DNA from: Candidatus Fraserbacteria bacterium
GTDB taxonomy: Bacteria > Bipolaricaulota > Bipolaricaulia > RBG-16-55-9 > JAJCYT01
Length of the DNA: 64,000 nucleotides
Assembly (NCBI GenBank): GCA_029262795.1
Contig: JAJCYT010000018.1
Coordinates: 103,982 to 167,981, forward strand
Reading direction: 5' to 3'
Part shown: positions 33,722 to 51,489 of the stretch, one piece after another
Layout: each line of letters opens with the position of its first letter
Numbering within the stretch: the stretch's first letter is position 1
Program-made: the position numbers and the translations under genes
Notes under the pieces: model-generated
Told to the model about the DNA's origin: nothing
What the model saw: only the letters and a program-made list of their open reading frames with translations
The model's database searches: none

Positions 33722-35124
33722 TGGTCGATGCGGTCAAACTCATCTTCAAAGCGGATGATGTCATCCTCACCCAAGTAGCTGCCCAATTGCACTTCGATCA
33801 ACTCCATCAATACATCGCCAGGATTTTCCAGCCGGTGCCTGGCTTTGGGTGGAATATAAACCGCCTGGTTTTCTTCCAAAATTTTGATCTCATCGCCCAC
33901 CGTGACCCTGGCCGTGCCCGTGACCACCACCCAATGTTCGACACGGAAATTATGCGCCTGTAAAGACAACGCAGCGCCAGGATGCACCGTCAGCCGCTTG
34001 ACCTGAAACCCTTCGCCCACATCCAGCACTTGGTACGATCCCCAGGGTTTGTGAACCTTTACATGATTGACCACTTCAACGCGCTCTTGCTGACTGAGCT
34101 GATCGACCAAAGGCTTTAGTTGCTGAGCCTGATCTTTTGCTGCAACCAGCACAGCATCTGCGGTTTCGACCACGATCATGCCTTCTAAACCTGCGGTGGC
34201 GAGCAGACGGCTTTGTGCCATTAGCAGAGAATTTTTTGTGTGCTGGGAAACCACATCCCCCTGAACCCAATTGCCATCCTGATCCTGTTGTGTGGCTTGC
34301 AGCGCGGCCCAATCCCCCACGTCCGACCACTGCGCCTGCAATGGAACCACAGCAGCATGAACGGTTTTTTCCATCACGGCATAGTCGATGGAATCAGCAG
34401 GGCAGTGTTCGAAATTTTCTTTATTGATCCAAAAATTGGACGCTTTTTGTTCACTCTGTGCAAACGTAGATTCACAGGCCACAAACATATCCGCAGCATG
34501 TTTTTTTAATTCATTCAGCCACACAGACGCTTTTATCACAAACATGCCGCTGTTCCAAAGATAGTCGCCAGAGTCGATATAGGCCTTGGCCGTATCCAGG
34601 TCGGGCTTTTCCACAAATGCATCCACCTTGGAAATTTCACCTTTTTTGATGTAGCCATAACCGGTGTGAGGTTGATCGGCAACCACCCCAAATGTGACAA
34701 GATGATCCTGACGGGCCAATTCAACCGCCGCAGTCACCGCCTCATGAAAACGTGCCTGGTCTTGAATCAAATGATCCGCAGGCAACACCAGCATGATGTC
34801 ATCCTGTTGGTGTTCCAGCATCCAAAGGGCCGCCAACGTTAAGGCAGGCGCAGTGTTTCTGCCCAGAGGTTCGAGCAACAACTGCGCAGACTGGCCCAAT
34901 GTCGCCAACTGTTCGCTGACATAAAACCGATGATCCTGATTGCAAACAACGATAGGGTCTGTTATTTCGGGCAAGTCGGCAAGCCGTTGCATCGTTTGTT
35001 GAAACAATGTTGGTTGCTCAGCGCCAAACTGAATAAAAGGCTTGGGCGCTTGCTGCCTTGAAAGCGGCCAAAGGCGCACGCCAAACCCTCCTGCCAAAAT
35101 GACTGGACACAATTTCATCGTCAT
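33718..35124 (-). CDS. manC: bifunctional mannose-1-phosphate guanylyltransferase / mannose-6-phosphate isomerase
   Basis: Nucleotidyltransferase loop CPVILAGGFGVRLWPLSR. C-terminal cupin with HRLENPG and EVQLGSYLGEDDIIRFED. The track start at 35190 would overlap the upstream gene. I prefer ATG 35124 or 35118 (MTMKLCPV). Confidence 0.9.
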   Translation of the reverse strand: MTMKLCPVILAGGFGVRLWPLSRQQAPKPFIQFGAEQPTLFQQTMQRLADLPEITDPIVVCNQDHRFYVSEQLATLGQSAQLLLEPLGRNTAPALTLAALWMLEHQQDDIMLVLPADHLIQDQARFHEAVTAAVELARQDHLVTFGVVADQPHTGYGYIKKGEISKVDAFVEKPDLDTAKAYIDSGDYLWNSGMFVIKASVWLNELKKHAADMFVACESTFAQSEQKASNFWINKENFEHCPADSIDYAVMEKTVHAAVVPLQAQWSDVGDWAALQATQQDQDGNWVQGDVVSQHTKNSLLMAQSRLLATAGLEGMIVVETADAVLVAAKDQAQQLKPLVDQLSQQERVEVVNHVKVHKPWGSYQVLDVGEGFQVKRLTVHPGAALSLQAHNFRVEHWVVVTGTARVTVGDEIKILEENQAVYIPPKARHRLENPGDVLMELIEVQLGSYLGEDDIIRFEDEFDRIDH

Positions 35125-35150
35125 CACAGAACCCTTTCCATCCGAGATTT

Positions 35151-37196
35151 TTAGTTGCCAGGCAAGCGAGACAGGGTCATGCCCAACCATTCAACTTCAA
35201 CCAGTTCGCTTGCATACAAACGGACTTCAACGTTTTCCAAACCAGGTGCTTCAACATTAAATTCAAGCGGAATCTCAACGGTTTCCTCGATCAGCATGGC
35301 GTCGGTTACAGATTGCTCACTGAGCATGATTCTGCCATTGTCGCTTACCACATTCACCATCAAATCTGTGGCATTGCCACGGAGCATTTTCAATCTGGCA
35401 ACGGCCTGGTAGTCGCCTACTGTGAGTGCGAGATAGGGTCCATAAATCAACAGGTCCGTGCCGGCCACATGCAAATAATCCTGAACTTGATCAAAGTTGG
35501 AATTGACTGGTGACCTGAACAACCCTCCAGGATATTCTAAACTGTTGGCCGTGATGCGGTAGACGACATCTGTATCAAATTCAGCGAGCGGCTCAAAATC
35601 ATTGCTAGATCTCAAATATTGAATTTCTTCCGAAGACAGCCTGTCCTCATGAACCAGCACGGTGTCAATGCCCAGCCAATTGAGGCGGGCCGCCGTGGCT
35701 GGCCCATCGAGTCGCACCAGTTGTTTTTTCAATTGATTAAAAAAGCCTTCGGCAGGCCCGTTGAACAAAGGTTTCTGGTGGGTACGCTGTGCCAGGCGAT
35801 CCTGATAAAACTGCCACAAGTTCAGTTGACCAGCGTCATCAAAAGCGGGGATGTTGTTGAGCGGATACTCTGCAATGGCTCTGATGGTGGGCTGATCTTT
35901 CAACCACCCGTCAACAGGTGCAACAGCAGTTGCCACGCGCAGTGTGGTCAGGCCCAAGCCAAACTCAAATGCAATCACCAACACGACCAGCAGCGATACA
36001 GTCGCCCGAAGCCAGGGCTGCGGAAACTTTTGCAACGCATAATGCATTCCAAAGCCGGCAAGTGCCGCAATCGCCAATCCCACCAAAACGCCAAAGCGAC
36101 TCAGCGTTCTGACCAAAGGCAAGATTGAATAAAGGAAATTTGAGGGCATCGGCACATCAGCGCCAAACACATTGATCGTTGGGGGCAACGAAAACAGAAA
36201 TCCAGCCAATCCCAGCAACAGCAGAAAGCTTAAGTAAGGTTTGGATTTTTTCCACAAATAAACCACACCCAGCACAGCAAGCAACAGAGAAAAGTAACCT
36301 AAAAACAAGGCCTGTTCATGCCAAATACCTGATGGCAAATCCGCCAGCGCCTGCCGATACCCACTGTTCCCACTGAGATAGGGCATCACATAAGCCACGG
36401 GTTTTGCCGCGTATTGAAACAATTGCGAAAAGGGGCGCGCCTCCAACAGATCAACTTCCGAAGAACGGCCCGCCACATCCAGATAAAGCGGCAACGTCAC
36501 CACAACAAACAACGCCAAAACGCCTATCCCTTGCCACACAGCAAACTTGGAGCGACGCCTGATGCAATACACGAAGAAGTAAATAAAAGCAATCAGAACC
36601 GCAAACACACCATAGTGCGGGTTGATGTAGGCACAAGCCGCCAACGCCAACGTCAGCCACGCAAACGATTTCCAGGAGCGGCGTTGCTCAAATGCATAGA
36701 GCGCCAGCAGTAACAATGGAAAAACTTCGATGCGCATCAAGCTGAAGTGATAGGCACTCATGGCCAGGTGGTAAGGCAATGCCATTAACACAAATCCGCC
36801 GATGATGGGACCCGCCCAACTTTGGGTGAATTTTCTGAGCAACAAAAACATCAGCCAGCCGGACAGGAAAAAGCTCAGAATCACCGTCAGATTAAACGCC
36901 ACAACCTCATTGCTGATAAAGGCCAACAGCAACGTCGGCCCCAAGGACAGCCAGTCCGTAGAGCGAAACTCAAGCACGGTACCTACCGGATAATTCAAAA
37001 GCGGGTCAGCCGTTGGCGCACCATGGGTCCAATACCACAAATACCAGATGGTCGATAAATTGTCCGAACGTTCTCCATAAATGCTGCTCGACAATTCAAA
37101 CACAAGTGGCTGGGTAACCAGCAGCGCCAAGAAGAAAAACACAAGGGCACTAAACCACATCGGATGACGCTGCACAAAGGCTATAAATTTTTTCAT
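35151..37196 (-). CDS. large polytopic membrane protein with C-terminal extracytoplasmic domain (GT-C-fold glycosyltransferase candidate)
   Basis: 681 aa. About 12 hydrophobic segments fill the first ~430 aa, followed by a ~250-aa soluble tail. The operon context includes ManC and a polyprenyl-phosphate GT2. I did not positively recognise a family. Confidence 0.45.
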   Translation of the reverse strand: MKKFIAFVQRHPMWFSALVFFFLALLVTQPLVFELSSSIYGERSDNLSTIWYLWYWTHGAPTADPLLNYPVGTVLEFRSTDWLSLGPTLLLAFISNEVVAFNLTVILSFFLSGWLMFLLLRKFTQSWAGPIIGGFVLMALPYHLAMSAYHFSLMRIEVFPLLLLALYAFEQRRSWKSFAWLTLALAACAYINPHYGVFAVLIAFIYFFVYCIRRRSKFAVWQGIGVLALFVVVTLPLYLDVAGRSSEVDLLEARPFSQLFQYAAKPVAYVMPYLSGNSGYRQALADLPSGIWHEQALFLGYFSLLLAVLGVVYLWKKSKPYLSFLLLLGLAGFLFSLPPTINVFGADVPMPSNFLYSILPLVRTLSRFGVLVGLAIAALAGFGMHYALQKFPQPWLRATVSLLVVLVIAFEFGLGLTTLRVATAVAPVDGWLKDQPTIRAIAEYPLNNIPAFDDAGQLNLWQFYQDRLAQRTHQKPLFNGPAEGFFNQLKKQLVRLDGPATAARLNWLGIDTVLVHEDRLSSEEIQYLRSSNDFEPLAEFDTDVVYRITANSLEYPGGLFRSPVNSNFDQVQDYLHVAGTDLLIYGPYLALTVGDYQAVARLKMLRGNATDLMVNVVSDNGRIMLSEQSVTDAMLIEETVEIPLEFNVEAPGLENVEVRLYASELVEVEWLGMTLSRLPGN

Positions 37197-37807
37197 GATG
37201 TCGAATGAATCATGTGTTTCTCTTTCAAAGTTTGCTGCGCTTGCGCCAAAACAGCGTCTGCCGTTGCGTGGGCATCAAGCGGTTGCAGTTGCACGTTGCT
37301 GGCTTCGAGTTGCTGATTCAAATTTTGATACAGTTTGAACCAATCTTGATAGACATTCAACGGATGTTCAAACGATTTTCGCTTTTGCAATTCCTCCGGC
37401 TCAGCTTGAAGCCAGAACACCACATCGGCCACGGGGGGAGATTGCAACAATTTTTTTGCCAGCCCAGGATGACCACGCAATTCAAAATACGTGACCAGGT
37501 CGTAAAGGTAGCGATCACAAAGAATGACATCATATTTGCGCGACAGGCGTGGCAAGGCCCAGTATTGCATCCAGCGAACAATCATTAACAGACCAAATGC
37601 TTTCCAGCCGGGCAACTTCGACAACCCCGCGCTTTTGCCGCCAGAAGATGCGGACTTGGAAAAACTGGGCAGGGCTGGCAAAGACGGCCAAAAGTGCATG
37701 GATGTGGTTTGATAGCCTTCCTGCTTGAAAAAATTGGACAAGCTGGCTGTGAGTGTGGTTTTACCACTGCCGTCCAGCCCGATGATGCCGATTAATTTTG
37801 CTTTCAT
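37193..37807 (-). CDS. P-loop kinase, thymidylate-kinase-like fold
   Basis: Walker A IGIIGLDGSGKTTL. Start MKAKLIG at 37807, directly after the upstream stop; the track start at 37840 would overlap the upstream gene. Its stop overlaps the next gene's start. Confidence 0.55.
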   Translation of the reverse strand: MKAKLIGIIGLDGSGKTTLTASLSNFFKQEGYQTTSMHFWPSLPALPSFSKSASSGGKSAGLSKLPGWKAFGLLMIVRWMQYWALPRLSRKYDVILCDRYLYDLVTYFELRGHPGLAKKLLQSPPVADVVFWLQAEPEELQKRKSFEHPLNVYQDWFKLYQNLNQQLEASNVQLQPLDAHATADAVLAQAQQTLKEKHMIHSTS

Positions 37808-37808
37808 G

Positions 37809-38585
37809 TTAGCCTCGAATAATGCGCAGTCGTTTGGCAACGTGAATCATGCCGTAGGCATAGACACACATGGCAAGGTTTTTCCAGCGCCCTTTTTTCA
37901 GGTCTTCAGAAATTTTCAGGCCAAACGCTTTAAGCATGGTGCTTTCGGAATAATGTTTCAATTCCTGACGCATGTGCTTGGGGTCATCCATCGCCTCCAG
38001 GTGTCCGTGTGTTTGTGCCCATGCGGGCAAATCGGTTTCGATCAAATCGACCACCCACTCAGCTGTTTTGCCATCCATTAACATTCTCATCTTGTTCACA
38101 TCAATGCGGTTTTGCAGATCACAAATTTGTAAATAATCACCAAAATTAATGGATTCTTCTTCAAAAAAGCCGTGCAGAATATAAATAAGATAATCATCTT
38201 CAGGGCAGGGAATTGGCACTTGAAGCCCTTCCCACGCTACCGACTGGCCGCGTTTTACAATGTTTGCAGCATCCATATAGGAAACGGTGTACCAGGAAAT
38301 GGATGAGTACAAATGGATTGCTGGCAATGGATCATCTTCAGGTGGCATCAGCATGGCTTTGTCGAACTCGAAGGTGAACACCGATTTAAACCCCTCGGCC
38401 TCAAAATGCCCTTTCACTTTCTTAAATTCACTTGGATCAGGCAGCAGAATGTCCAGGTTGGAATCCGCATAGCGATAGCATTTTACGGTTTTAATCAACA
38501 CATATTTGACATCAAGCTGTGCCAACACAGGCAGTATCTGTGCGACACGCGCCTGGAAATTTTCAAACGTAATTTTCTTGCTCAC
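37809..38585 (-). CDS. hypothetical protein, possibly nucleotidyltransferase-fold (NTP_transf_5-like)
   Basis: 258 aa. KYVLIKTVKCYRYADSNLDILLPD resembles the G-x-D-hDhLh pattern of uncharacterised nucleotidyltransferases. It shares 4-nt overlaps with neighbouring genes. Confidence 0.4.
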   Translation of the reverse strand: MSKKITFENFQARVAQILPVLAQLDVKYVLIKTVKCYRYADSNLDILLPDPSEFKKVKGHFEAEGFKSVFTFEFDKAMLMPPEDDPLPAIHLYSSISWYTVSYMDAANIVKRGQSVAWEGLQVPIPCPEDDYLIYILHGFFEEESINFGDYLQICDLQNRIDVNKMRMLMDGKTAEWVVDLIETDLPAWAQTHGHLEAMDDPKHMRQELKHYSESTMLKAFGLKISEDLKKGRWKNLAMCVYAYGMIHVAKRLRIIRG

Positions 38586-39772
38586 AATGACCTTCCTGCA
38601 AGTTCGACTGCTTGTTGATAAAACTGATGGGTCGATGCGGCAATTTTGTCCCAGTCATACGCTTTCAAAATTCTTTCCCTGCCATTTTGACCCATCCGTT
38701 TTGCATCTTCGGGTTTTTCCAACATATGAATGATGTGCCTTGCCAATGTGTCTGGTCGATTGGGTGGGGCAAGCAACCCATGTTCTTTGTGTTCAATCAA
38801 ATCATTCACCACATCCAGCGTGGTCGAAATCGACGGCCTGCCCACCGCCATGGCTTCCACCAGCGTCAGGGGTTGAGCCGGCAGCGCCATCGGCGTTAAA
38901 AACGGCAACACCACCACGTGAGACACCGCCAGATAATCGGCAATGTCGCCTCTGGTCTTCACTTCGTGATAAATAAATGGTTTCAGTGGATGCTGATTCA
39001 CTTTTTCAGTGACGCGATCCGTAGACACATCTGCACGGACCAGCAACACCAAGCGCGCATTCGGCACCGCTTGGTGCACCCGTGTGAACGCCTGCAAAAG
39101 CGTCCCGATGCCGCGAATCAACTGTGCTTTGCCAAAAAAGAGAATCAATTTTTCATCGGCACCAAATCCCAAATCTTCAGGGTTCAACTGCTTTGGCGTG
39201 AATTGATCGACATCTACGCCTGATGGCAAATGATAAACCGGACAATCCAATTGCGCCTGAAGCGTTTGCTGCATTGCCTTGGTGGGCACAGACAGACCAA
39301 AGGCATTTCTGCGCCTGATCTTTTTCGCTATCTTTTTGAACGACAGGTTAACATTCATCAAGTGACCTGGCCCCCATAACTTTTTGCGTTCCTGAACAAA
39401 ATTTTTCAGGCCCACATGGCGATAATCCTGCCACATCAGTTTGCCTGCATGGAGTGAAAATATTTTTGGCACGTCAAAATTTTTGGTCAGCAGCAATGTT
39501 CCAGGGCCACCATGATGGTCGAGCAGGTCAGGTTGGACCTCGTCTAAAATAGTTTGTATTTTTTCTTTTTCCGTATGTGTGAATAAATAAGGGTGACCGC
39601 CGACCACATGCACGTTAATTCCTGGATACTCAGGCACTGTTTCCAACAACTTGGAAGTGATGATGTCAAACTGATACCCGTGTTGTTGCGCCAAGCGTTT
39701 GCTGACTTCCAGAATATGTTTGGTGAACCCGCTGTGCGGATCCAGCCATTCTTTACAAATTGCGATTCTCAC
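38582..39772 (-). CDS. glycosyltransferase family 4 (GT-B, group 1)
   Basis: 396 aa. The C-terminal Glycos_transf_1 pattern is LILFFGKAQLIRGIGTLLQAF...VVVLPF...QPLTLVEAMAVGRPSISTTL. GTG start in a GTGA overlap. Confidence 0.8.
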   Translation of the reverse strand: MRIAICKEWLDPHSGFTKHILEVSKRLAQQHGYQFDIITSKLLETVPEYPGINVHVVGGHPYLFTHTEKEKIQTILDEVQPDLLDHHGGPGTLLLTKNFDVPKIFSLHAGKLMWQDYRHVGLKNFVQERKKLWGPGHLMNVNLSFKKIAKKIRRRNAFGLSVPTKAMQQTLQAQLDCPVYHLPSGVDVDQFTPKQLNPEDLGFGADEKLILFFGKAQLIRGIGTLLQAFTRVHQAVPNARLVLLVRADVSTDRVTEKVNQHPLKPFIYHEVKTRGDIADYLAVSHVVVLPFLTPMALPAQPLTLVEAMAVGRPSISTTLDVVNDLIEHKEHGLLAPPNRPDTLARHIIHMLEKPEDAKRMGQNGRERILKAYDWDKIAASTHQFYQQAVELAGRSL

Positions 39773-42438
39773 TGTCCCTCTCCCCGCTGAATGAACAATT
39801 GTAAATCATTCTCCGGGATGCGTCCATCCAACACGTACAAACTGCCCACCATCCAGTTTCGCCAGGGGCGCGCCTGTTGTCCATTGGCCTCAAGCCAGCG
39901 CTGCTGCCAATAATGCTTGCCGCGATACCCCAGCAAAGACAGTGTGCTGGATGCTGCCTGCGCCTCAGCACGTTCGATGGCGTCGGTCAATTCATCAATC
40001 GATTTTGCCAGCGTCAGCCCCTGATAATTTTCAAACACGTTTTGAACTGCCACCCATTCGGAAGTTTCAATCGCATAAGCCATGTTGAGGATCACCGGCG
40101 CATTGGAAAGCGTTTCGATCTCAATCTGGTGTGTTCCGGCTGAAAGAAAAAGTTCTTCAACAGGCAAAAATTGGTAGTCGGTGGAAGGTTCAAAAAACAA
40201 GTCCGTCTCATACACGTCATCCAGCCTCAATGAAAGATGGCTGCCCTGTGCGGCCATGCCACGCAGAAACAAGGTATAAACGCCCGAATTCTTGATGATG
40301 AAATGAAAAGCCTGTGTCACATTTTCCTCTGAGGTTGCCACCAAGCGATGGTTAAAGGCACCATCAATGCCAAATCGTTGGTAGTCCTGTTTAAAGCGGG
40401 AAAAATTGTTCACACTCACATTGAGCCAGGCATGGTCGCGCCACTTCAACGAATTTTCATTGCGCTCCAATAAAGGATAGGCCACCACACCCGTGCTGCG
40501 TGCCAGCAGATTTAACAGAAACTGATCTCGCCCTGACGGTGAAAATGCAATCACCTTTTGCTCCAACCGTTCCACCCAATTAGAAAACGTCTGCCAATCC
40601 AAGTCGCCTTCGTCCGCGCGAATTAAACCGACACGATTCAAATCAATGTCTGAATCAATGAGCTGTTGAATTGAATCCAGCGATCCATCAAACGCTATCA
40701 CGCCATCTAAAGGGGTGAACTCATTGGGCTTCCAACTCAGGTTTTCATACAGGTAGACATTATCCTGCTGAAAGATAAGTTCTAAATCTGTTTGTAATTC
40801 CAGCGCCTGCCTTGTTTTAACAAACTCATCTTCGGGTTTCGGGTTTTCCACATCGTCATGGAAGAACAGATAACGAAACCCTGCAAAGTTTAAGTATCTA
40901 CCAAGGTGTGTGGTTTTTTGCTGATAGAGCAGCTCAAAATATAAATAACCCAAATATTCCTGGTTGGGTAATGGCGCGCCGGTAGAGCCTTCCATGGAAG
41001 GGCCACCGTGTAACAACGCAAAAGCCTCATCGGGCGTTTTCTTCAAATTGTTCCAACTCAGCGGACGTGCGCCGCCCATAATCGGCAGATACAACACCTT
41101 TTCTTGATGCACCAATTCAAGCGCATTCTCATACGCATCAGGCAAGGGCATCGGACGCAGCACACCACCGAGGTCGCCATAAAACACAGGCTGAAACGCA
41201 GGGTGCGCCACAAAAGGAAACAGCCACATCACCACCGCCACAGCACCTGCCGCCATGGACCAGTCTTGCCAGCGCTGTTTGAATCGACTGAGTAGGAATG
41301 TCAATCCTAGTCCCGAAAGCGTTGCCAGCAACATTGCGCCCAACAACAACCAGCGGTACGGATTGCGCAACACCGCCAGCAGCCCATTGATCAGTGAAGC
41401 CAAAAACCCCTCTCCTTCAGCAAGCGCCAGGAAAAAGCTGTATACCGAAATGGAATGATGAATGCCCGAGCCCATCATAATGGCAATGGCCCACAACAGG
41501 CCAAAGCTGAGCAGCAGCCAGTGCGCGCGAAAACGCCACAACGCAATCACTGCCAGCAGCGCAAACAGGCCAAACAGCGCCGTCTCAATGGGATAGCGGG
41601 AAAACAGTTGATCGGCAAACACATATTGACCAGTGGGTGAAGCGTGGGTTTCAGGCAGCGACAATCCCATCGGCAACAGGATGCGTTCAAAAAACGGCCC
41701 AGACCAGGAGCGTACCAAATTGAGATTTAAAGGCACAGACCCCATCGCAGCCGAGATGATGCCCTGGTTGCTGACCCAAACCCAATAGCCGTATGGAACC
41801 AGTCCAAAAACAGCCACCACACTCCAGACTTTAAGCCCGATCCAGCGATGCTGAATGAAAGACACCAGCATCATCAGCGTGATGGCACCAAACCCAAGAA
41901 TCACCATGTGGATGGCTGGATTGATGAGCAAAAAACCCACCCCTGCCAACGCCCACAACCACCATTTACTCTGGGCTTTAATGCTGTTAAGAAAACACAC
42001 AAACAGCCAGGGAAGCAAAGCGGCTCCCAAAAATAACGAATAGAACTGGTGTGACTTGGCCGAGAACAAAATGGCCATAAAAAAGAACCCCGAGGCAATG
42101 GCCGCCAGCGTGCTTTCGTTGCGAACTCTCACTTCCCGTTGCACAAGCATGGACAGAAAATACACCCCGACACCCGCCAAGGTGCAGATAAACCATAGAC
42201 TTAATGGAATGATGGGCGCGTATCGAAACAGCGTGCCAAAGATAGAATAGCGCCCTCGCACTTCGGGCCACTGATAGTAGTTATTCCAGGCCTGGGTCAC
42301 AAAATCGATGGTCTGATTGGCGTGAAGGTGGGGGATAAGATCGTCAAAGGCAAGGATGCCCGGTGTAAACAAAACGTCTCTCACCATGATGAAAGACAGC
42401 AATACCAACACACTCACAGCAATCAGGTGTTTTTTCAT
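39769..42438 (-). CDS. very large polytopic membrane protein with ~450-aa C-terminal extracytoplasmic domain (GT-C / YfhO-like candidate)
   Basis: About 890 aa. Many hydrophobic segments fill the first ~430 aa. Start MKKHLIAVSV at 42438, with a GGAGG RBS and an ATGA overlap with the upstream stop. Confidence 0.45.
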   Translation of the reverse strand: MKKHLIAVSVLVLLSFIMVRDVLFTPGILAFDDLIPHLHANQTIDFVTQAWNNYYQWPEVRGRYSIFGTLFRYAPIIPLSLWFICTLAGVGVYFLSMLVQREVRVRNESTLAAIASGFFFMAILFSAKSHQFYSLFLGAALLPWLFVCFLNSIKAQSKWWLWALAGVGFLLINPAIHMVILGFGAITLMMLVSFIQHRWIGLKVWSVVAVFGLVPYGYWVWVSNQGIISAAMGSVPLNLNLVRSWSGPFFERILLPMGLSLPETHASPTGQYVFADQLFSRYPIETALFGLFALLAVIALWRFRAHWLLLSFGLLWAIAIMMGSGIHHSISVYSFFLALAEGEGFLASLINGLLAVLRNPYRWLLLGAMLLATLSGLGLTFLLSRFKQRWQDWSMAAGAVAVVMWLFPFVAHPAFQPVFYGDLGGVLRPMPLPDAYENALELVHQEKVLYLPIMGGARPLSWNNLKKTPDEAFALLHGGPSMEGSTGAPLPNQEYLGYLYFELLYQQKTTHLGRYLNFAGFRYLFFHDDVENPKPEDEFVKTRQALELQTDLELIFQQDNVYLYENLSWKPNEFTPLDGVIAFDGSLDSIQQLIDSDIDLNRVGLIRADEGDLDWQTFSNWVERLEQKVIAFSPSGRDQFLLNLLARSTGVVAYPLLERNENSLKWRDHAWLNVSVNNFSRFKQDYQRFGIDGAFNHRLVATSEENVTQAFHFIIKNSGVYTLFLRGMAAQGSHLSLRLDDVYETDLFFEPSTDYQFLPVEELFLSAGTHQIEIETLSNAPVILNMAYAIETSEWVAVQNVFENYQGLTLAKSIDELTDAIERAEAQAASSTLSLLGYRGKHYWQQRWLEANGQQARPWRNWMVGSLYVLDGRIPENDLQLFIQRGEGQ

Positions 42439-43898
42439 TGGTTCGCCTCCAACGGAAAAATCCACTCGCGGTGCAGGGTTTTTTGCTGGTCTTCATCTTC
42501 AGCAAAGGCCAGCAGCCGAATCAACTGTGGCGCTGGTAATCGTGAGAGATTGATTTGAAATGTCAGCGTTCGCTCCACCTGCCCGCCTCTGGGCTGCACA
42601 GAAACCACAGCGGCAGGGTTCAAGGACTCAAGCCATTGGCCCCGCCACGGACTGTGAAGCAAAATCATGCCCAAATCACGCACCAGCACATCGGCTTGAG
42701 GTGGCGCACTGGACATGGCCAACCACCCTCCCTGCCCAGCTCGCAGGAAAAACGGATTGTACAAATGCAAATCCTGTTCAATCACTTCCTTAGGACCTTG
42801 CGTGAATCGATTAAACAATTCCTGATATCCGTAAAGCATTTGGACATCTTCCACCAGTTCACGAATCCCGCCATACTGCCCCTGATACCGCCCTTGAAGC
42901 AGCGCCACACTGGCTGATGACATTTGTGTGGGCCGCGCGGACACAGACCACCATGTGTTCAGTTTGCCCGTAAAAGCCACCCCTGGAGGCACCGTGGCCA
43001 GTGACTGTACCCGACCATCATTGAGCAATACATTTCGCAATGGATGGGTTGAAATGGGCGTGATCAGGACCAAACCTTTTTCCAGCCATTGCTTTAAATG
43101 CTCCATGCCCGTTTGGCTGGCTTGTGGGTTTTGCAATAAGGCCACTGGCAAGGTGTCCTCGGTGATGCCTGCTTCCCCAACCAGGCTGGTCATCATAATC
43201 AACACCGCCGGCGCTTGTGTTTGTGCCAAGGCTTGAAGCTGATTTCTATTCACAGTTTCTACATTCAGTTCAGGCACCAATCGTTGCAACCACCGTTTCA
43301 GTGCGCTGAGAAAATTTTTTGATCTGTCGCTGAGCACCTCATCTTCAAACACATAAATGGGCATAGATTCAGATTGATAGCTATAAAACGGTTCAGCCAA
43401 AAACGTGAGGTTGTCGTACCCGACGCTGTTTAAGTGAAATTGCATTTTCAGTTGGGCATCCACAGTCGAAATATCGATGTTGGACAGTTCGAGTTTTTTT
43501 TCGATGGCGGGCGTTGAAAATTCAAATTGAACCTGGTGCCCCTGATTGATCTCAATGGTCATTTGGTGCAATTTCTCTGGCAGAAATGAATTGCGAATAT
43601 AAATGGTGCTGGCCTGATGTGGATCGAGGTTGAGCTGATCTGCAGACCAGGTGAGGTGAGGTTGTTCATCAACGTTTATCTGATTGAGTTGGATAGGTTT
43701 TTCTCCAACATTCAACAGTTTTAGTTGCAACTGTCGGCCATCCTCGCTTAAAAAAAACTGCGCATCCTGGAGTATCAACTGCACGGAATGATCGACCTTT
43801 GAGACACTCAATGCTGCAAAAGCCGCGATGATCATCATAAACAGCCCGATACCAATGCTGGCCCAAATATCTAAAGCGGAAAAGGTTTTTCGGTTCAT
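42435..43898 (-). CDS. hypothetical N-terminally anchored extracytoplasmic protein
   Basis: A single TM (IWASIGIGLFMMIIAAFAAL) is followed by ~450 aa with no motif I recognise. Start MNRKTF at 43898, in an ATGA overlap with the upstream stop. Confidence 0.55.
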   Translation of the reverse strand: MNRKTFSALDIWASIGIGLFMMIIAAFAALSVSKVDHSVQLILQDAQFFLSEDGRQLQLKLLNVGEKPIQLNQINVDEQPHLTWSADQLNLDPHQASTIYIRNSFLPEKLHQMTIEINQGHQVQFEFSTPAIEKKLELSNIDISTVDAQLKMQFHLNSVGYDNLTFLAEPFYSYQSESMPIYVFEDEVLSDRSKNFLSALKRWLQRLVPELNVETVNRNQLQALAQTQAPAVLIMMTSLVGEAGITEDTLPVALLQNPQASQTGMEHLKQWLEKGLVLITPISTHPLRNVLLNDGRVQSLATVPPGVAFTGKLNTWWSVSARPTQMSSASVALLQGRYQGQYGGIRELVEDVQMLYGYQELFNRFTQGPKEVIEQDLHLYNPFFLRAGQGGWLAMSSAPPQADVLVRDLGMILLHSPWRGQWLESLNPAAVVSVQPRGGQVERTLTFQINLSRLPAPQLIRLLAFAEDEDQQKTLHREWIFPLEANQ

Positions 43899-46333
43899 GA
43901 TGCGTTGATCAAACCTGTATAAAGCTGCACGGTGTTTTTGGCAACGGTGTCCCAGTTGCGCTGCGCTTGCCATTGGCCGCTGACCTGTTGAGCATGTTGG
44001 CCAAGTTCACTGGAAGCAAAAAATGTTTCCAGTTTGACGGCCAGTGCCTGTGGATCAAGCTCAAACAACAATTCGTCTGCCAAAACCCCTTCAAACGCCT
44101 GAGATGCCAGAAAAGCGCGCTCGTAGGCAATGCACAAGGCCAAAGGCCCGCTGCTGGAAATGACCACTCTGTAAGGAAAAACCACCACATCCGAAGCTGA
44201 AAACACATCGGCCAAATCTTCTTCTGGCACAAACCCAAGCGGACGGGCTTGATCACCAAGACGTTCAAACGCATCATCCAATGTTTTAAGATACGCTTGA
44301 TACTCAGGGTCTTCCTTGCGCCTGGGATGCGGACCGCCGCCAAACATCAACACCCATTCTGGGTGTTTTTTCGCCGCAAGCTCAAAGGCTTCGATTAAAA
44401 TCTCGACCCCTTTGTAACCAGTGAGATAGCCCAAATAGAGAACAACTTTTTTATCCACCAAGCCCAAGCGTTGTTTGGCTTTCATTGGATTTGGCTTTTG
44501 TTCAAAAAATTCGACCCCATGAGGAATCACAGTGATCTTGTCTGGGTTGCAGTGATATTCGTTGACCAAATACCCTTTCAGCTTTTCTTCATGCGTAATG
44601 GCGTGGTGGGACAACATCACAATCGTTTTCACCAAACCATAAAGAACCATAAATAAAAGCTTTGGATGGCCTTTTAATCCATTTTCCTGAATGAAGCTGC
44701 GATTGAGTTTCGACAAAGGCAGGAACCCGTGCAGCGTGACAACCACCTTGGTCTGAGAACGAATCAACAGCAACAGCAATGGAAACATCAACGCCGATAG
44801 TCCGTGCCCATACAAAAACAATTCGTGCTGCAAGTGAACCAGCTGAGGCCGTTGTTTTCTGACTTCACGCCAGATCTGAAAAGGATACAACAAACCAGGT
44901 TGCCAGCAGCGAGCCACATGATCTGCATCTTTCAAATCAGCCTGGCTGGGTTGGTTCCCAATCACACTGGGATGCCGCGTTTGCCGAGCGATCGCTTCGA
45001 TGAGATTTTGCGTGTAGGACGCCACCCCACCTTCTGAGCCATGCTTGGCTTCAAGTGTGGGATAGGTCGACACCATACAAAAAGAATCGGGCTTTGTTGC
45101 CACTTGATCTTGTTTTGTCCACACCCATGTCAGGCCCAGCAACAACATCAAGCCATGAAATCCGAACAAGATGCTGGCCATTTGTACCAATGATTCATGC
45201 AGCCAAAACAGCGTGACCACTTCCAGCGCGCCGAGCAGAACCATGAAGGTCAACAGTCCATGCAGCCGATGTGCCAATGCATAGTGCAGCACCACGGCCA
45301 CCCCCGTAAATGTCAGCATGGCCAGGCTGTAGATGGGCAAAATCGAGGCAGCACCCAAAAATTCCGATCCAAACAACATCTGAATCACCCATTGCGGAAA
45401 CAGCACCGCAATCAAAGTGGCTGCCCCGCCCATGATGCCACTGATGAGCAAGGCTTTGGTCAGATGGTGGCGGGTTTTTGAAACAAGCGGCTGCTGTGCC
45501 GCCTTTGGCAACAACACCGAACTTGCCCCCAATGCCAAGAATAAAAATGCTTTGCCAATTACAGCAGCAGACGTGTAAAGGCCCGCATCTAGATTTAAAA
45601 AATATTGCTTGACCAAAATCACATCAACATTGGTGGGAATGGCCAAAATCACCGCCAGCCAAAAAGCCCATATACCAGATGATTTGATTGAGTTAAATGC
45701 TGATGTTGTATCAACAGAAGTCGGCACAGGCGATTTGTTTTGCCAAAAAGCCAAGCCAAAGGTCATTAAAGAGGCGATGCCCCATCCTGCCCACGCCCCC
45801 CAAAGTCCCATGCCTAGGATCACGAAAACAACGCTTAGCGTGAGCTTTACTATCGGCTCTACGATATTGAGGATGGCCAGAGATTTAAATTGCAGTTTTC
45901 CTTGAAACACACCTTTCAAGATGGGCAATGGCAAAGCCATCAGCCAAACCGTCGACATCCAAACCAGCATCACGGGGTCTAAATTCAATGCACTTCCCAG
46001 GGGCAAGCTCAATGCCCCCATCAACACAAAGATGACGACAGCGATCACCCCAATCTGACGAAAGCGGCCCCGATTTGAACCCTGTTGCTGTGCCGTGGTT
46101 CGTGCCAGTTGGAGCTGTGAACTTTGGCTGAACAGCCATAACAAATAAAACAATCCTAACAAAGCGCCAAAATCAGCATAGGTTTCGGCCCCCAACAACC
46201 GCCCCAAGGTGATGTGGTAGACATAGCCTATGGCCCCACCCACCATCAGCGAGGCGGAAACCATAACGCTTTCTTTCAGTGAATGGTCAGTGCGCAAGGC
46301 GTTTAACGTGGTTTGAATCAATTGAAAATTCAT
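43895..46333 (-). CDS. fusion protein: Wzx/MOP-type polysaccharide flippase (N) + GT4 glycosyltransferase (C)
   Basis: 812 aa. Residues 1-~420 are polytopic and flippase-like (LMVGGAIGYVYHITLGRLLGAETYADFG...). After the junction WVWTKQDQVATKPDSFCMVSTYP comes a GT-B enzyme (VVLYLGYLTGYKGVEILIEAF...VVVFPY). Confidence 0.7.
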   Translation of the reverse strand: MNFQLIQTTLNALRTDHSLKESVMVSASLMVGGAIGYVYHITLGRLLGAETYADFGALLGLFYLLWLFSQSSQLQLARTTAQQQGSNRGRFRQIGVIAVVIFVLMGALSLPLGSALNLDPVMLVWMSTVWLMALPLPILKGVFQGKLQFKSLAILNIVEPIVKLTLSVVFVILGMGLWGAWAGWGIASLMTFGLAFWQNKSPVPTSVDTTSAFNSIKSSGIWAFWLAVILAIPTNVDVILVKQYFLNLDAGLYTSAAVIGKAFLFLALGASSVLLPKAAQQPLVSKTRHHLTKALLISGIMGGAATLIAVLFPQWVIQMLFGSEFLGAASILPIYSLAMLTFTGVAVVLHYALAHRLHGLLTFMVLLGALEVVTLFWLHESLVQMASILFGFHGLMLLLGLTWVWTKQDQVATKPDSFCMVSTYPTLEAKHGSEGGVASYTQNLIEAIARQTRHPSVIGNQPSQADLKDADHVARCWQPGLLYPFQIWREVRKQRPQLVHLQHELFLYGHGLSALMFPLLLLLIRSQTKVVVTLHGFLPLSKLNRSFIQENGLKGHPKLLFMVLYGLVKTIVMLSHHAITHEEKLKGYLVNEYHCNPDKITVIPHGVEFFEQKPNPMKAKQRLGLVDKKVVLYLGYLTGYKGVEILIEAFELAAKKHPEWVLMFGGGPHPRRKEDPEYQAYLKTLDDAFERLGDQARPLGFVPEEDLADVFSASDVVVFPYRVVISSSGPLALCIAYERAFLASQAFEGVLADELLFELDPQALAVKLETFFASSELGQHAQQVSGQWQAQRNWDTVAKNTVQLYTGLINAS

Positions 46334-46446: not shown

Positions 46447-47535
46447 TCAACCAGTGGTCAACGCAACATTGTAAGGGGTGGGATTCATCCAGGGAGAAGA
46501 CACCTGATCGCCTTCCTGAATGGCCAATGCAGCGTGAACCACATTTCGATCAACCATCCCTTGCTGGAATAAAAGGTCGCCCAGCTTCTGACCATTGCCT
46601 TCGCTTTTTTGTAAGATCAACATTTGATTGAGCTCCTGGACAGAAAGCATATTCATCTCGCACAGAATCTGGCCCAGCTTTTTAGCAGCTTTGGATTTGT
46701 GAGAATCGTTGTGATCGACTGAGTTGAGCAGTGCGCTGAAGTTTTTCACCGCTTTGAGGCGCAGGCGAATCAGTTGCCAAAACATGTCAGGCACCGTTTT
46801 GAGCACATTCAGTTGGGAAGGACGGGTGTCTGGCTGAATGTCGATGGACACTTCTTGGATCAAGTGGCCGTTTTGGTAAATGTTATACAGCAACTCAACA
46901 TCAAACGCCCAGCCTTTCAGTTGTAGATCGGCCAGCACTTGATCCACAATTTCTCTGCGAAACACCTTGGCCCCGCACTGGGTGTCGGCATAAGGCAGCC
47001 CCAACACCAGCGTGGTCAACTTGCTAAATGCTTTGCCTGCAATGCCGCGCATGGCAGAAGTGTGTTCCTGATTTTTAGGCGCAACATATTTCGAACCGAT
47101 AAAGCCATCAATGGTGCTTGATGATGCCAAGGGGCCAAGCAATTTGCTAAATTCATCAACGGTGATCTGGCCATCTGCATCGACAAAGCCCACCAAATTG
47201 CCACGTGAAAGCTGAAGGCCAAGTTTGATGGCCTGTCCTTTATCGGCTTCATCTCGCATGGCCCAGCCGATGTTGGCGTGGTTTTCACTAAATGCAGTGA
47301 CTTTTTCCAATGTGTTGTCTGAACAGCCGTTAAGGATCACCCAAATTTCATAGCTGTAGGGCTGCTGATCCAGGTAAGACACATATTGAAGCAACGTGTT
47401 TTCAATCGTCAATGCTTCATTATAAGCCGGAATAATCAGTGAAAAATGAGGCTTTACAGCAGCCATGTGCTGATCAAAAGCGTGTTTGTCTAACCAATCG
47501 TTTTTGGGATGCGTCGTTGCAAAATCTGCGATCAT
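46447..47535 (-). CDS. polyprenyl-phosphate glycosyltransferase (GT2, GtrB/DPM1-like) with C-terminal MshEN/T2SSE_N-like motif pair
   Basis: GT2 motifs: FSLIIPAYNEALTIENTL, VDADGQ (DxD), DTQCGAKVFRR. The C-terminus has KLGQILCEMNMLSVQELNQMLILQ, then 7 aa, then KLGDLLFQQGMVDRNVVHAALAIQ. Confidence 0.75.
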   Translation of the reverse strand: MIADFATTHPKNDWLDKHAFDQHMAAVKPHFSLIIPAYNEALTIENTLLQYVSYLDQQPYSYEIWVILNGCSDNTLEKVTAFSENHANIGWAMRDEADKGQAIKLGLQLSRGNLVGFVDADGQITVDEFSKLLGPLASSSTIDGFIGSKYVAPKNQEHTSAMRGIAGKAFSKLTTLVLGLPYADTQCGAKVFRREIVDQVLADLQLKGWAFDVELLYNIYQNGHLIQEVSIDIQPDTRPSQLNVLKTVPDMFWQLIRLRLKAVKNFSALLNSVDHNDSHKSKAAKKLGQILCEMNMLSVQELNQMLILQKSEGNGQKLGDLLFQQGMVDRNVVHAALAIQEGDQVSSPWMNPTPYNVALTTG

Positions 47536-47553: not shown

Positions 47554-48936
47554 TTAACTGCCTGGGACTGGTATATCCGTAGGTGGCACAAAAAAGTACG
47601 TAAGTTTGTCAAATTTACCGCTGGCACAAGCCATCGCTGCTGGATCAAAGCCCTGAGGCGGTGAGGAAATCAGTCGATTCAACACCAAGAAACTCAAATC
47701 AGGCACATCCAGCCCATCTACAAATTCATCGGCACTGCCAGCAGAGATTAGCTTTTCACGCACAGCTATTTCAAAAGCGGCTTCTTCCGCACGCTTGATG
47801 CTCATTGTGATCAAAATTTGATCCAATAAAGGCATTTCAACGTTCAGTGCGCGTAACATAAATAAAGAGGCTGCGCCTTTGCTGATGGGATCATCTGCAA
47901 CCACCGGATAATCTTGTGGTATCACACCTTCAGACACAAAAAATGCCACGATTTCATCAATGGTGGCATTAGAGGGAAGATCCATCGACCCATTGCTCAA
48001 AACGAACAATAAGCGCAAAAATTCTTCATGCGTCAGCAACTGTCTGGGGATCAACGTATTGATGTAATCCACAAGTGATCTGGATGAGAAGCAATTTCCG
48101 CAAGACAGGTTGGGCAACAAAATGGCTTCAGTGGCCAATTGTGCCACTTCTTCCGGCAACAACACCCTGTTATAAATGCGGGCTTCGTCCAAAATACCAG
48201 GCAATACACCCATGCCAGGCGTGTTGGTTTCTGGATTGAGGGCTGATCCTAAGTAAAGCAAATCATCATTAATTTCAATCGGGCCAGGGCCAAGGGTGAC
48301 TGTTTGATCAACCTGACCATCCAGGTAAAGTTTGGTTTCACCCGTTTCGGCATCGTAAGAAAGCGACAAATGGAACCAGCGACTTTGAGGAACGGACGTT
48401 TCACTTAAAATCGTTTGTGGCTCACCGGCAATATTTAAATGCCCCTGCGCTTTCATTTCTTCATGCTCAATCCCCAAGCCATATACATCAATATTGGGTT
48501 TGGCAAACGCAAAAAATTCCTCATCTTCGCTGTCTTCAACAAGGTTCTTATTGAGGCAGATCCAACATGTCAGGGTCAACGTGTTGTTGACATCTAAAGA
48601 GTTTGTATCTTTCACCTTGGCGATAAATGTTTCTCGGCCGTAGAAATTCAACCCAAACTCAATCAAACCGTTGACCCAGCTTGGGCCATCGAGTTCGCCA
48701 TCATTGTCAAAGGGGGAGCGGTCGAACAAAATCCGTCCGCTGCCTTCATCGAATGTCCAGTAGCCCACCAAACCTTCATTCAAACGATCAATGTTCACCT
48801 GCGCTTGAGTCACAGGATCTGCAATTTGATGAAGGGTCAGCAGAATGAGCGCAAACAGTGCCAGGCGCTTCAAATTTTTTAAGATCATTTCTTGCCTCAT
48901 TTTAAATTGATATAAATTTAAAGTTCTTATGAACAC
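47554..48936 (-). CDS. secreted LamG (concanavalin-A-like lectin) domain protein
   Basis: LamG entry motif LVGYWTFDEGSGRILFDRSPFDNDGELDG and exit motif LDEARIYNRVL. I did not recognise the ~190-aa C-terminal domain. The likely start is M17 (48888), behind GAGG. It ends 18 nt upstream of the GT2 gene. Confidence 0.75.
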   Translation of the reverse strand: MFIRTLNLYQFKMRQEMILKNLKRLALFALILLTLHQIADPVTQAQVNIDRLNEGLVGYWTFDEGSGRILFDRSPFDNDGELDGPSWVNGLIEFGLNFYGRETFIAKVKDTNSLDVNNTLTLTCWICLNKNLVEDSEDEEFFAFAKPNIDVYGLGIEHEEMKAQGHLNIAGEPQTILSETSVPQSRWFHLSLSYDAETGETKLYLDGQVDQTVTLGPGPIEINDDLLYLGSALNPETNTPGMGVLPGILDEARIYNRVLLPEEVAQLATEAILLPNLSCGNCFSSRSLVDYINTLIPRQLLTHEEFLRLLFVLSNGSMDLPSNATIDEIVAFFVSEGVIPQDYPVVADDPISKGAASLFMLRALNVEMPLLDQILITMSIKRAEEAAFEIAVREKLISAGSADEFVDGLDVPDLSFLVLNRLISSPPQGFDPAAMACASGKFDKLTYFFVPPTDIPVPGS

Positions 48937-49325
48937 TTATCCAACCTAAGCAATAACATAACATTGCTTTGCGCAACAATTATTCAGCTCTCAAGTGAAC
49001 AATATGTTGCAAATAAAATGTAGGCTCGTTTTGGTTCTCTCGCCTGTACGCGCCTTTAAGTTGTGTTTATTTGGGATTTTGCTGAAACCACCCAATAAAC
49101 ACAGTCTTGAAACTGTATTTCTTGCTCATGGGTAATCCAGCCATCTGGGAAATTCAGATCTGTGATTTTGCGCCCTTATCTCACGATAAGTTTGCCTTTA
49201 TCGCATGAGACTTTGGTAAAAGCCTCAAGATATTTTTTCTCTATTATACACAATAAGTTTAAAAATACAACTATGTGCTATGGAGTTTAACAATTATAAA
49301 GCATTTTTTTAAACTTGTCAATATA

Positions 49326-50679: not shown

Positions 50680-51489
50680 TCAAGAACGGTTCAGATCGTT
50701 GGTATACAATTGCAGAATTTCCGACTGAGACAACACGCGGCTGTACAGGCGCACTTCATCCAACAAACCTGGCCAGGCATGGACGTCTACAATATTTTCA
50801 GGTTTTTTCATCGAAATGGAAAACGGCTCTTCAGGGACAGAATCAATGTTTCCTGGGGTGCGGTTTCTTTCCACCACCAACGTGTCATCCAGATAAAGCT
50901 GCATCTGCCCCGTTGTTCCGTTGTAGCTGAAGGTAATGTAAACCCAATCTCTCAAAGGAAATGGATCGTCTGACGAGGTGCGAATCACCTGTCGCTCCTC
51001 GGCCACGTACACCGAGGCGCTCAGCGTGCCATTTTGCTCCAGAATCAAGCCGAAAGGACGGGACCCTCTGGAGGCATTGCCAAACAACAAACGCCAATCA
51101 TTGCCAGAAGTGGTATCCGGATTACTGTTCAAAAATGCCCACATGCTGATGGTAATGCTGGTCAGACCATCAAGCCGTTGATTAAAGGGAATCAACACAT
51201 GGTCATCAAATCCATCAAAAGACAACGCTGCATTGTTGTGTCCATTGGTCCAGTTCGGACTGTTTTGCAACGTGCCATTGTGTCGAAAAGCAGAACTGTC
51301 CTGAGCCACCTGGCCTTGATCCTCATCAAACGACCAGTAGCCGATCAAACCCGCAGATACAGGTGAATTGGGTTGTGCATGAGACAAAACGCTGATAATC
51401 ATAAGTAGCGATAAAAAACCAGCAAAGCGCAAGGTCCATTTCATTGATATATTAAACATTTTCATCTCCTTCATTGATTTCATCATCAT
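50680..51489 (-). CDS. secreted LamG domain protein
   Basis: LIGYWSFDEDQGQVAQDSSAFRHNGTL ... LDEVRLYSRVLSQSEILQLY. Signal peptide FAGFLSLLMIISVLSHAQ. The exact start is ambiguous because there are several Met codons. Confidence 0.75.
   Translation of the reverse strand: MMMKSMKEMKMFNISMKWTLRFAGFLSLLMIISVLSHAQPNSPVSAGLIGYWSFDEDQGQVAQDSSAFRHNGTLQNSPNWTNGHNNAALSFDGFDDHVLIPFNQRLDGLTSITISMWAFLNSNPDTTSGNDWRLLFGNASRGSRPFGLILEQNGTLSASVYVAEERQVIRTSSDDPFPLRDWVYITFSYNGTTGQMQLYLDDTLVVERNRTPGNIDSVPEEPFSISMKKPENIVDVHAWPGLLDEVRLYSRVLSQSEILQLYTNDLNRS

Follow-up and report, generated by a model that had tools for sequence, protein, structure and literature searches.

The GT2-MshEN_N fusion gene and its parts

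The DNA analysed here, called the window throughout, is a stretch of 64 kb (64,000 nucleotides, nt) from contig JAJCYT010000018.1 of a Candidatus Fraserbacteria genome. It encodes a protein of 362 amino acids (aa) in which a family 2 glycosyltransferase (GT2) carries a C-terminal tail that resembles MshEN_N, a domain known for binding cyclic di-GMP (c-di-GMP). The gene is the second in a cluster of eight. PF00535 (GT2) covers aa 32-200 at 66.4 bits in a Pfam scan of the protein, and the full-length AlphaFold model has a mean predicted local distance difference test score (pLDDT) of 85.8. The gene and its parts are as follows.

46447..47535, minus strand: GT2-MshEN_N fusion gene, 362 aa, stop codon included (open reading frame call)
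46807..47445, minus strand: GT-A catalytic domain, aa 31-243 (Pfam, family alignment, profile, Foldseek)
46714..46806, minus strand: two post-catalytic helices, aa 244-274, candidate membrane-interface helices (VLKTVPDMFWQLIRLRLKAV...) (AlphaFold, profile alignment)
46681..46713, minus strand: flexible linker, aa 275-285 (pLDDT <50 for aa 275-282)
46516..46680, minus strand: MshEN_N domain, aa 286-340 (hidden Markov model (HMM), tail profile, motif scan, structure)
46450..46515, minus strand: C-terminal extension of 22 aa (EGDQVSSPWMNPTPYNVALTTG), found in the subclade of the window protein and homologue P0002 only; predicted disordered

Motif 1 of the tail runs from K286 to Q309 (KLGQILCEMNMLSVQELNQMLILQ) and motif 2 from K317 to Q340 (KLGDLLFQQGMVDRNVVHAALAIQ), with residues 310-316 (KSEGNGQ) as the spacer between them. 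A first-pass annotation, made from the letters alone, had described a tandem c-di-GMP-binding motif with a 7-aa spacer at 46516-46680 in the last 77 or so residues of the protein. A six-frame motif scan returns the same coordinates (minus strand), and from K286 to the last residue there are 77 aa. The departures from the published template listed by that annotation are also present (in motif 1 a Cys at position 7 and an Asn at position 10, and between the motifs 7 aa of spacer), and Lys takes the place of Arg at position 1 of motif 1 and motif 2 alike. The second motif had been said to fit the template almost perfectly; it matches all 11 positions of the published relaxed motif, and motif 1 matches 9 of the 11.

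Taken alone, the relaxed motif is weak evidence. As a regular expression it was rejected as a significance test, being too loose: single-motif matches number 81 in the window against 72 in residue shuffles, and tandem matches (at least 9 of 11 positions) number 3 in the six-frame translation, where the shuffles average 0.6. We therefore relied on profile, structure and comparative tests.

The tail as an MshEN_N domain

NF053729 is the NCBIfam model, 53 positions long, for a cyclic di-GMP-binding domain related to MshE ('c-di-GMP_motif, MshE-related'), with a cut-off of 38 bits. It matches the isolated tail at 46.2 bits (E 2.9e-12), aligning residues 286-340 with profile positions 1-53 of 53. 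All 14 members of the family, that is, the window protein and 13 tailed metagenomic homologues that are 37-73% identical, are matched at E <= 1e-3 (best 2.5e-15). In most of the homologues the tail is of the canonical form, RRLGEILCxLGxL...Q, then a spacer, then RLGEILVQMGLV...LALALQ, and spacer length in the family ranges from 5 to 11 aa. When the profile of the 14 tails is compared with the PDB, the only significant matches are MshEN-type domains, including those of T. thermophilus PilF (2.1e-23), PilB (5zfr, 1.4e-9) and V. cholerae MshE (5htl, 1.3e-8).

Predicted structures give the same picture. The AlphaFold model of the tail has four helices (10-16, 22-35, 41-47 and 53-63) and a core pLDDT of 77-86, and the full-length model repeats them at 287-293, 299-311, 318-324 and 330-340, after a low-confidence linker. 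The tail model overlays MshE with bound c-di-GMP (5htl) at a root-mean-square deviation of 1.0-1.1 Å over 58 columns with 34% identity, and PilF-GSPIIB with bound c-di-GMP (8pdk, 9glg) at 1.3-1.5 Å. Foldseek E-values for the tail are weak (0.08-0.2) because the domain is short. Assignment to an unrelated helical domain had been named in the first-pass annotation as an outcome that would count against its reading; instead, all 12 of the best PDB structural matches are MshEN/GSPII N-domains. The annotation's identification of an MshEN-type tail is thus upheld by NF053729 on the isolated tail, by the tail profile against the PDB and by the AlphaFold overlay, which agree.

The alpha/beta subdomain MshEN_C is absent, as only 22 low-confidence residues follow Q340, and most of the homologues end 1-3 residues past the last Gln. 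Judged from profile and model, the module is MshEN_N alone, the four-helix c-di-GMP module without MshEN_C. Other collections offer fainter resemblances: the tail has a weak NCBIfam match to positions 4-56 of TIGR03029 (EpsG), it matches the C-terminal parts of both NfrB models (PRK15489 positions 487-545, and PRK11234), and the sole Pfam match on the family tails is a weak one to DUF4388.

Orthologues without the tail also exist. Five GT2 orthologues lack it (P0011, P0014, P0015, P0016 and P0017), and P0016, at 10001-10696 of the related locus L090, ends just past the interface helices, with 6 nt between it and the next gene, and has no MshEN_N. Since tail-less orthologues occur within the same operon, we regard the tail as an accessory regulatory add-on. 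A search of 185,579 species-representative genomes returned, among the matches listed, only tail-less relatives, with the query matched at most to residue 297. Conversely, the tail profile found 17,654 representatives at E <= 1e-3, of which the best 150 are mostly multi-repeat MshEN_N proteins; none of the 148 new proteins among these best 150 has a comparable GT2 domain. DNA of the window itself was found in biofilm, aquatic and marine metagenomes.

Predicted binding of c-di-GMP

Ten columns of the tail are invariant across the 14 proteins (L287, G288, L291, L306, Q309, G319, L322, A336, L337 and Q340), nine of them motif-defined positions. We compared the ligand-contact positions, which are 1, 2, 3, 17, 21 and 24 of each motif, and found them conserved in both motifs, with R replaced by K at position 1: K286, L287, G288, L302, L306 and Q309 in motif 1, and K317, L318, G319, V333, L337 and Q340 in motif 2. 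The isolated MshEN_N of MshE binds c-di-GMP with a dissociation constant (Kd) of 0.35 µM (Wang et al. 2016).

For each motif deviation of the window protein there is a counterpart in a protein known to bind. PilF-GSPIIB, for which the c-di-GMP complex has been solved (8pdk, 8pfa), natively has Lys at motif position 1 (K167). Position 10 of motif 1 is likewise not Gly in E. coli NfrB, where it is Q (PLGQILLENQVI...), and NfrB binds c-di-GMP with a Kd of 1 µM and needs that binding for activity (PMC8669469). Within the family, P0002 also has its motif 1 turn Gly replaced, in this case by K.

Comparison of the window with the 73%-identical L081 indicates that the tail is under purifying selection, weaker than that on the catalytic core. 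Nonsynonymous divergence (pN) is 0.23 and synonymous divergence (pS) 0.85 in the tail, against a pN of 0.105 and a pS of 0.66 in the core, and the linker (aa 275-285) is just 30% identical between the two. In the same comparison the 22-aa C-terminal extension is 91% identical despite its predicted disorder, and its pS of 0.38 is unusually low beside the 0.66-0.85 of the rest of the gene. Behind this low synonymous divergence may lie a peptide motif, or else a constraint acting on the nucleotides themselves.

Four points weigh against a functional c-di-GMP sensor here. With the full-length protein as query, the score for NF053729 is 34.6 bits (E 1.2e-8), slightly below its 38-bit cut-off. The search with PF05157 (T2SSE_N) that the first-pass annotation had proposed came back empty, both for the protein (even at E <= 10) and for the tail and each of the 14 family tails at lenient E-values, although we consider PF05157 uninformative for a module made of MshEN_N only. 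Motif 1 has Asn in place of the helix-turn Gly, and both motifs have Lys for Arg. Finally, the placement of the tail relative to the catalytic domain is not confidently predicted, the linker having a pLDDT below 50.

The full-length score and the motif substitutions, including the Lys in P0002, would suit a degenerate MshEN_N that binds no ligand and serves folding, oligomerisation or docking, so that a riboswitch at the head of the operon (described below) would be the sole c-di-GMP input. Non-binding MshEN domains are documented, XpsE being an example, and the tail-less orthologues show that the pathway can run without the tail. However, of the substitutions blamed for the loss of binding in XpsE (G11V, I19R, L29R, R38G, G40L, L54H, L58C and Q61V) the window tail has none, and both of its motifs retain L, G, L17/V17, L21 and Q24. 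Proven binders, as set out above, include proteins with Lys at position 1 and with a residue other than Gly at position 10, and purifying selection on the tail also argues against degeneration. We consider a degenerate tail distinctly improbable, and we think it likely, from the conserved contact positions and the modelled fold, that the tail binds c-di-GMP.

Enzyme class of the GT2 domain

A profile of the 119-sequence family finds, in this order, the dolichyl-phosphate mannose synthase of P. furiosus (PfDPMS; 5mlz, 3.2e-28), GtrB (5ekp, 1.7e-23) and ArnC (9hwj, 1.3e-21) in the PDB. The alignment with PfDPMS takes in the catalytic domain and continues through the interface helices as far as chain residue 258, which falls in the region of the second of them. 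The metal motif D119-A-D121-G-Q123 is invariant in the family and aligns with 89-DADLQH-94 of PfDPMS. Foldseek, run with the full model, likewise places ArnC, GtrB and DPMS first (9bhc at 7.8e-14, 9nyf and 5mlz at 5e-12), and the closest named relatives are dolichyl-phosphate glucosyltransferases and polyprenol-phosphate mannose synthases. The AlphaFold helices at 244-262 and 266-274 occupy the place of the interface helices and, read from their sequence, are amphipathic.

Other results weigh against a polyprenyl-phosphate transferase. No segment anywhere in the 362-aa protein rises above the hydropathy threshold for membrane spanning. The equivalog HMMs are missed widely (PpgS at 43.6 bits against 370, AglJ at 42 against 325, and ArnC at 39.5 against 529). 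Soluble enzymes of the GpgS type are structural matches nearly as good. In PfDPMS the acceptor phosphate is bound by R117, R131 and S135, of which S135 positions it; the aligned residues in the family are K149 for R117, R163 (invariant) for R131 and G167 (invariant) for S135, so that Gly stands where PfDPMS has Ser135.

All of these would fit a protein whose tail binds c-di-GMP, but whose GT2 domain is a peripheral, non-processive transferase acting on another acceptor, such as a lipid-linked oligosaccharide, a protein or a small molecule. GpgS and MpgS, both soluble, are close in structure, with E-values of about 1e-11 against 1e-13 for ArnC. Against such an acceptor, the best profile matches are all polyprenyl-phosphate transferases, and the DPMS match spans the interface-helix region as well as the catalytic domain; the nearest named relatives act on dolichyl or polyprenol phosphate, and no other enzyme to charge a lipid carrier was detected in the conserved operon. 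Nor need the lack of a membrane-spanning segment prevent function, because PfDPMS shorn of its membrane domain remains active and can still reach the membrane. We regard another acceptor as unlikely, though worth keeping in view.

Polyprenyl-phosphate glycosyltransferase is the best-supported class for the GT2 domain on profile and fold, and we favour it with fair confidence. The first-pass annotation had given the domain this label, and the closest relatives by profile and by fold are of this class. The acceptor itself is a superfamily-level assignment, since membrane-spanning helices are lacking and no equivalog threshold is reached. Overall, that annotation's reading of the tail and the enzyme is supported, every computational test agreeing with it, with binding and gating as predictions from sequence and model.

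The sugar donor may be GDP-mannose. This possibility comes from a nearby gene for a ManC-type GDP-mannose pyrophosphorylase/isomerase (33718-35190, minus strand), which lies near the operon in this window only.

The eight-gene operon

The fusion gene belongs to the following cluster, all of it on the minus strand.

47554..48936, minus strand: gene 1, LamG/concanavalin-like protein, 460 aa, with an N-terminal hydrophobic anchor or signal (PF13385, hydropathy)
46447..47535, minus strand: gene 2, the GT2-MshEN_N protein, 362 aa
43895..46333, minus strand: gene 3, 812 aa, N-terminal Wzx/MOP flippase-like domain (about 10 membrane helices) and GT4 domain (PF01943, PF13439, PF00534)
42435..43973, minus strand: gene 4, 512 aa, one N-terminal membrane segment (hydropathy, conserved position)
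39769..42465, minus strand: gene 5, 898 aa, about 10 membrane helices and a soluble domain of about 480 aa (orphan family)
38582..39772, minus strand: gene 6, GT4 glycosyltransferase, 396 aa (PF00534, PF13692; conserved position)
37809..38585, minus strand: gene 7, 258 aa, weak resemblance to NTP_transf_5 (conserved position)
37193..37840, minus strand: gene 8, 215 aa, P-loop protein, dTMP kinase-like (conserved position)

The order of the eight genes is shared with four related loci (L082, L087, L088 and L090), and the flanks are unrelated. A fifth, L081, has the first five genes in common with the window and then diverges. The fusion of a Wzx/MOP flippase-like domain with a GT4 domain is kept in all related loci.

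The conserved operon yielded no initiating phosphoglycosyltransferase and no other enzyme to charge a lipid carrier, which leaves the GT2 as the sole candidate for this step. As a carrier-charging enzyme it fits the 'first lipid-linked step' that the first-pass annotation had assigned to it, in what would be a role resembling that of AglJ.

Genes 4 and 5 have no relative in Pfam, NCBIfam or PDB sequences. In a set of 5.8 billion proteins the family of gene 5 has just 10 homologues, and its first loop contains an invariant F40-D41-D42. This topology and the invariant FDD suggest that the 898-aa protein is a candidate GT-C-like transferase using a lipid-linked sugar.

Gene 1 likely starts at the ATG at 48900. 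The resemblance of its product to TafC fimbrial proteins is weak (36 bits, with a cut-off of 410). A single marine metatranscriptome contig of 258 nt is more than 99% identical to gene 1 at 48447-48704; it is slight evidence that the head of the operon is transcribed in nature, and too little to define a transcript.

Several features of the surroundings can be recorded here. Three LamG/concanavalin-like proteins stand in a row at the head of the operon (47554-48936, 50680-51489 and 51486-53639, minus strand), one of them fused to a PhoD-like phosphatase. Directly downstream of the cluster, in this window only, is a 681-aa protein with about 11 membrane spans (35151-37196, minus strand), which has a faint PTPS_related/GT-C-clan hint (E 0.5) and otherwise no Pfam, NCBIfam or PDB match. 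Farther away, a 1244-aa protein combines a Ser/Thr kinase with NB-ARC and TPR repeats (23885-27619, plus strand), and the CHU_C type IX secretion signal domain ends two secreted-type proteins (20136-21158 and 60829-63543, both minus strand), which are a zinc metallopeptidase and a TIG-repeat protein; this domain may hint at the lineage.

A c-di-GMP riboswitch at the head of the operon

Upstream of gene 1 lie a promoter match and a riboswitch aptamer, listed below with the aptamers found at the same place in the related loci.

49293..49321, minus strand: sigma-70-type promoter match, TTGACA-17 nt-TATAAT, 12/12 (consensus match only)
49128..49206, minus strand: c-di-GMP-I riboswitch aptamer (RF01051, 61 bits against a gathering threshold of 35, E 1.8e-9, full model)
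8304-8383 of L081: related-locus aptamer
8517-8597 of L082: related-locus aptamer
8450-8526 of L087: related-locus aptamer
8499-8580 of L088: related-locus aptamer
8290-8364 of L090: related-locus aptamer

The aptamer at 49128-49206 is the sole Rfam match in the 64-kb window. It sits between the promoter match, which is about 90 nt upstream of it, and gene 1, with a long leader of about 225 nt between aptamer and likely ATG. No clear terminator was found in this leader, though its folding is strong (z = -4.9).

The five related loci have aptamers of the same clan (CL00126), scoring 58.7-78.8 bits, and the riboswitch is thus present at the operon head of the tail-less L090 too. In L082, L087 and L088 the end of the aptamer lies beside GGAGG-like sequences and is separated from the start codon by 22-25 nt, which suggests translational control there. 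In four loci the top Rfam score comes from the variant model RF03167 (the 'GGC' variant). A different ligand in the related loci was considered and rejected: the segment CGCAAA is invariant in the six aptamers, against CGCGAA in the RF03167 consensus, and for that reason we treat all six as c-di-GMP-I-type.

The riboswitch implies c-di-GMP signalling in this organism, with the operon among its targets. It also strengthens the reading of the tail as a c-di-GMP sensor, being an independent link to c-di-GMP. A point on the other side is that no GGDEF, EAL, HD-GYP or PilZ gene was found among the 40 large open reading frames of the window that were scanned.

Proposed mechanism

Our proposal is that the protein belongs with the non-processive GT2 enzymes of the DPMS/GtrB/ArnC kind, MshEN_N substituting for their usual membrane-spanning C-terminus, and that it works in an operon for surface-glycan assembly and export. 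On profile, model and gene context we put this at somewhat better than even. We suspect that the GT2 would use its pair of amphipathic helices to dock on the inner membrane face and transfer a sugar from a nucleotide-sugar to polyprenyl phosphate. The two GT4 enzymes could then extend the lipid-linked sugar, the Wzx-like domain could flip it across the membrane, and the 898-aa multi-span protein might use it outside the cell.

In such a pathway one c-di-GMP would bind the four-helix MshEN_N bundle, which would be tethered by the 11-residue linker directly after the second interface helix. In DPMS the second interface helix is coupled to the active-site loop. Binding would most likely relieve a catalytic block, or promote productive docking at the membrane or with a partner. 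The pathway probably reads c-di-GMP twice, at the level of mRNA and protein production and again at the lipid-sugar step. The analysis itself establishes which domains are present and how they fold, that the ligand-contact positions, the operon and the riboswitch are conserved, and that the tail is optional; from sequence, model and analogy we infer c-di-GMP binding, the direction of control, the acceptor, the sugar and the final product.

Activation is proposed in parallel with NfrB. It is also conceivable that c-di-GMP inhibits the enzyme or merely relocates it, or that its physiological ligand is a different cyclic dinucleotide, cGAMP for example. The sequence is compatible with either direction of control, the riboswitch may turn expression on or off, and in a protein without membrane-spanning helices recruitment to the membrane would be the obvious control point; as to the ligand, a section of the MshE paper is headed 'MshEN can also bind cGAMP'. 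On the other hand, NfrB, the only characterised GT2-MshEN protein, needs binding for activity, the aptamer ahead of the operon is of a c-di-GMP class, and the biofilm metagenome source agrees with the usual pattern of more surface glycan at high c-di-GMP. We therefore think inhibition, mere relocation or a different ligand rather unlikely, and retain activation by c-di-GMP as the proposal.

A more far-reaching version would take the riboswitch-headed eight-gene glycosylation system, not described before, as a coherent two-level c-di-GMP gate in which the aptamer governs expression and MshEN_N governs the carrier-charging enzyme, with MshEN_N replacing the membrane anchor of a DPMS/GtrB-type transferase and the 898-aa FDD family forming a new GT-C-like class. 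We hold this version tentatively, at rather less than even. If the two-level gate is real, a second messenger would for the first time be seen to act directly on a synthase of polyprenyl-phosphate sugars.

Known c-di-GMP control of polysaccharide output falls mainly on processive synthases and co-polymerases (BcsA, PgaCD, Alg44, PelD and NfrB). If the tail does bind, c-di-GMP would act one step earlier, on the supply of lipid-linked sugar. Second-messenger control would then extend to the DPMS/GtrB/ArnC class, which also supplies protein glycosylation and the modification of O-antigen and lipid A. Tailed and tail-less orthologues within a riboswitch-controlled operon offer a natural comparison of sensing at the protein level with sensing at the RNA level. 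The operon also points to several orphan families as putative components of a surface-glycan system that, in uncultured bacteria of biofilms and the sea, would depend on c-di-GMP.

Comparison with known systems

The fusion of MshEN to a glycosyltransferase was noted in 2016 and characterised in E. coli NfrB in 2021 (PMC8669469). NfrB resembles the window protein in having a GT2 catalytic domain followed by a C-terminal MshEN-type c-di-GMP receptor (PMC8669469), and in a motif 1 without the turn Gly. However, NfrB is a 745-aa processive synthase with DxD, TED and QxxRW motifs and membrane helices between its two domains, and it acts with NfrA and YbcH as a secretion system. The window protein, in contrast, has 362 aa, is of the DPMS/GtrB type and lacks QxxRW, a membrane helix and MshEN_C, and its operon includes flippase and GT4 genes. 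The NfrB family model PRK11234 matches it in the tail only, at 18.9 bits against a cut-off of 1170.

With MshE, PilF and PilB (5htl, 8pdk, 6f8l; PMC5013675) the tail shares the tandem 24-residue motifs and the four-helix bundle. In those proteins MshEN is N-terminal, in secretion or pilus ATPases, and is accompanied by MshEN_C, whereas the window has MshEN_N alone, at the extreme C-terminus of a glycosyltransferase, with a spacer of 7 aa against their 5. The MshEN_N subdomain also occurs by itself in Methylobacillus EpsG and Bdellovibrio Bd2402 (supplement of PMC5013675). EpsG is a member of an exopolysaccharide pathway, but its module is N-terminal, on a chain-length-determinant tyrosine kinase.

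On the enzyme side, PfDPMS (5mlz), Synechocystis GtrB (5ekp), Salmonella ArnC (9bhc) and Haloferax AglJ have in common with the window protein the GT-A fold, DAD-x-Q and amphipathic helices after the catalytic domain. They differ in ending in 2-4 membrane-spanning helices and in having no known sensor of a nucleotide messenger. By analogy with AglJ, it is plausible that the GT2 places the first sugar on a monophosphate carrier and that other transferases extend it.

We found no report, in the literature searched, of MshEN on an enzyme of the DPMS/GtrB/ArnC type, nor of c-di-GMP control of a carrier-charging enzyme together with a riboswitch on the same operon. BcsA-PilZ, PgaCD, Alg44, PelD and BgsA share with the present proposal a post-translational action of c-di-GMP on glycan synthesis, but the receptors there act on processive synthases or co-polymerases. 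Surface operons controlled by c-di-GMP riboswitches share with it the control of surface-structure operons at the RNA level. Compared with these systems, what is new here is that a known receptor is joined to another glycosyltransferase class, and that the operon, controlled by a riboswitch, had not been described.

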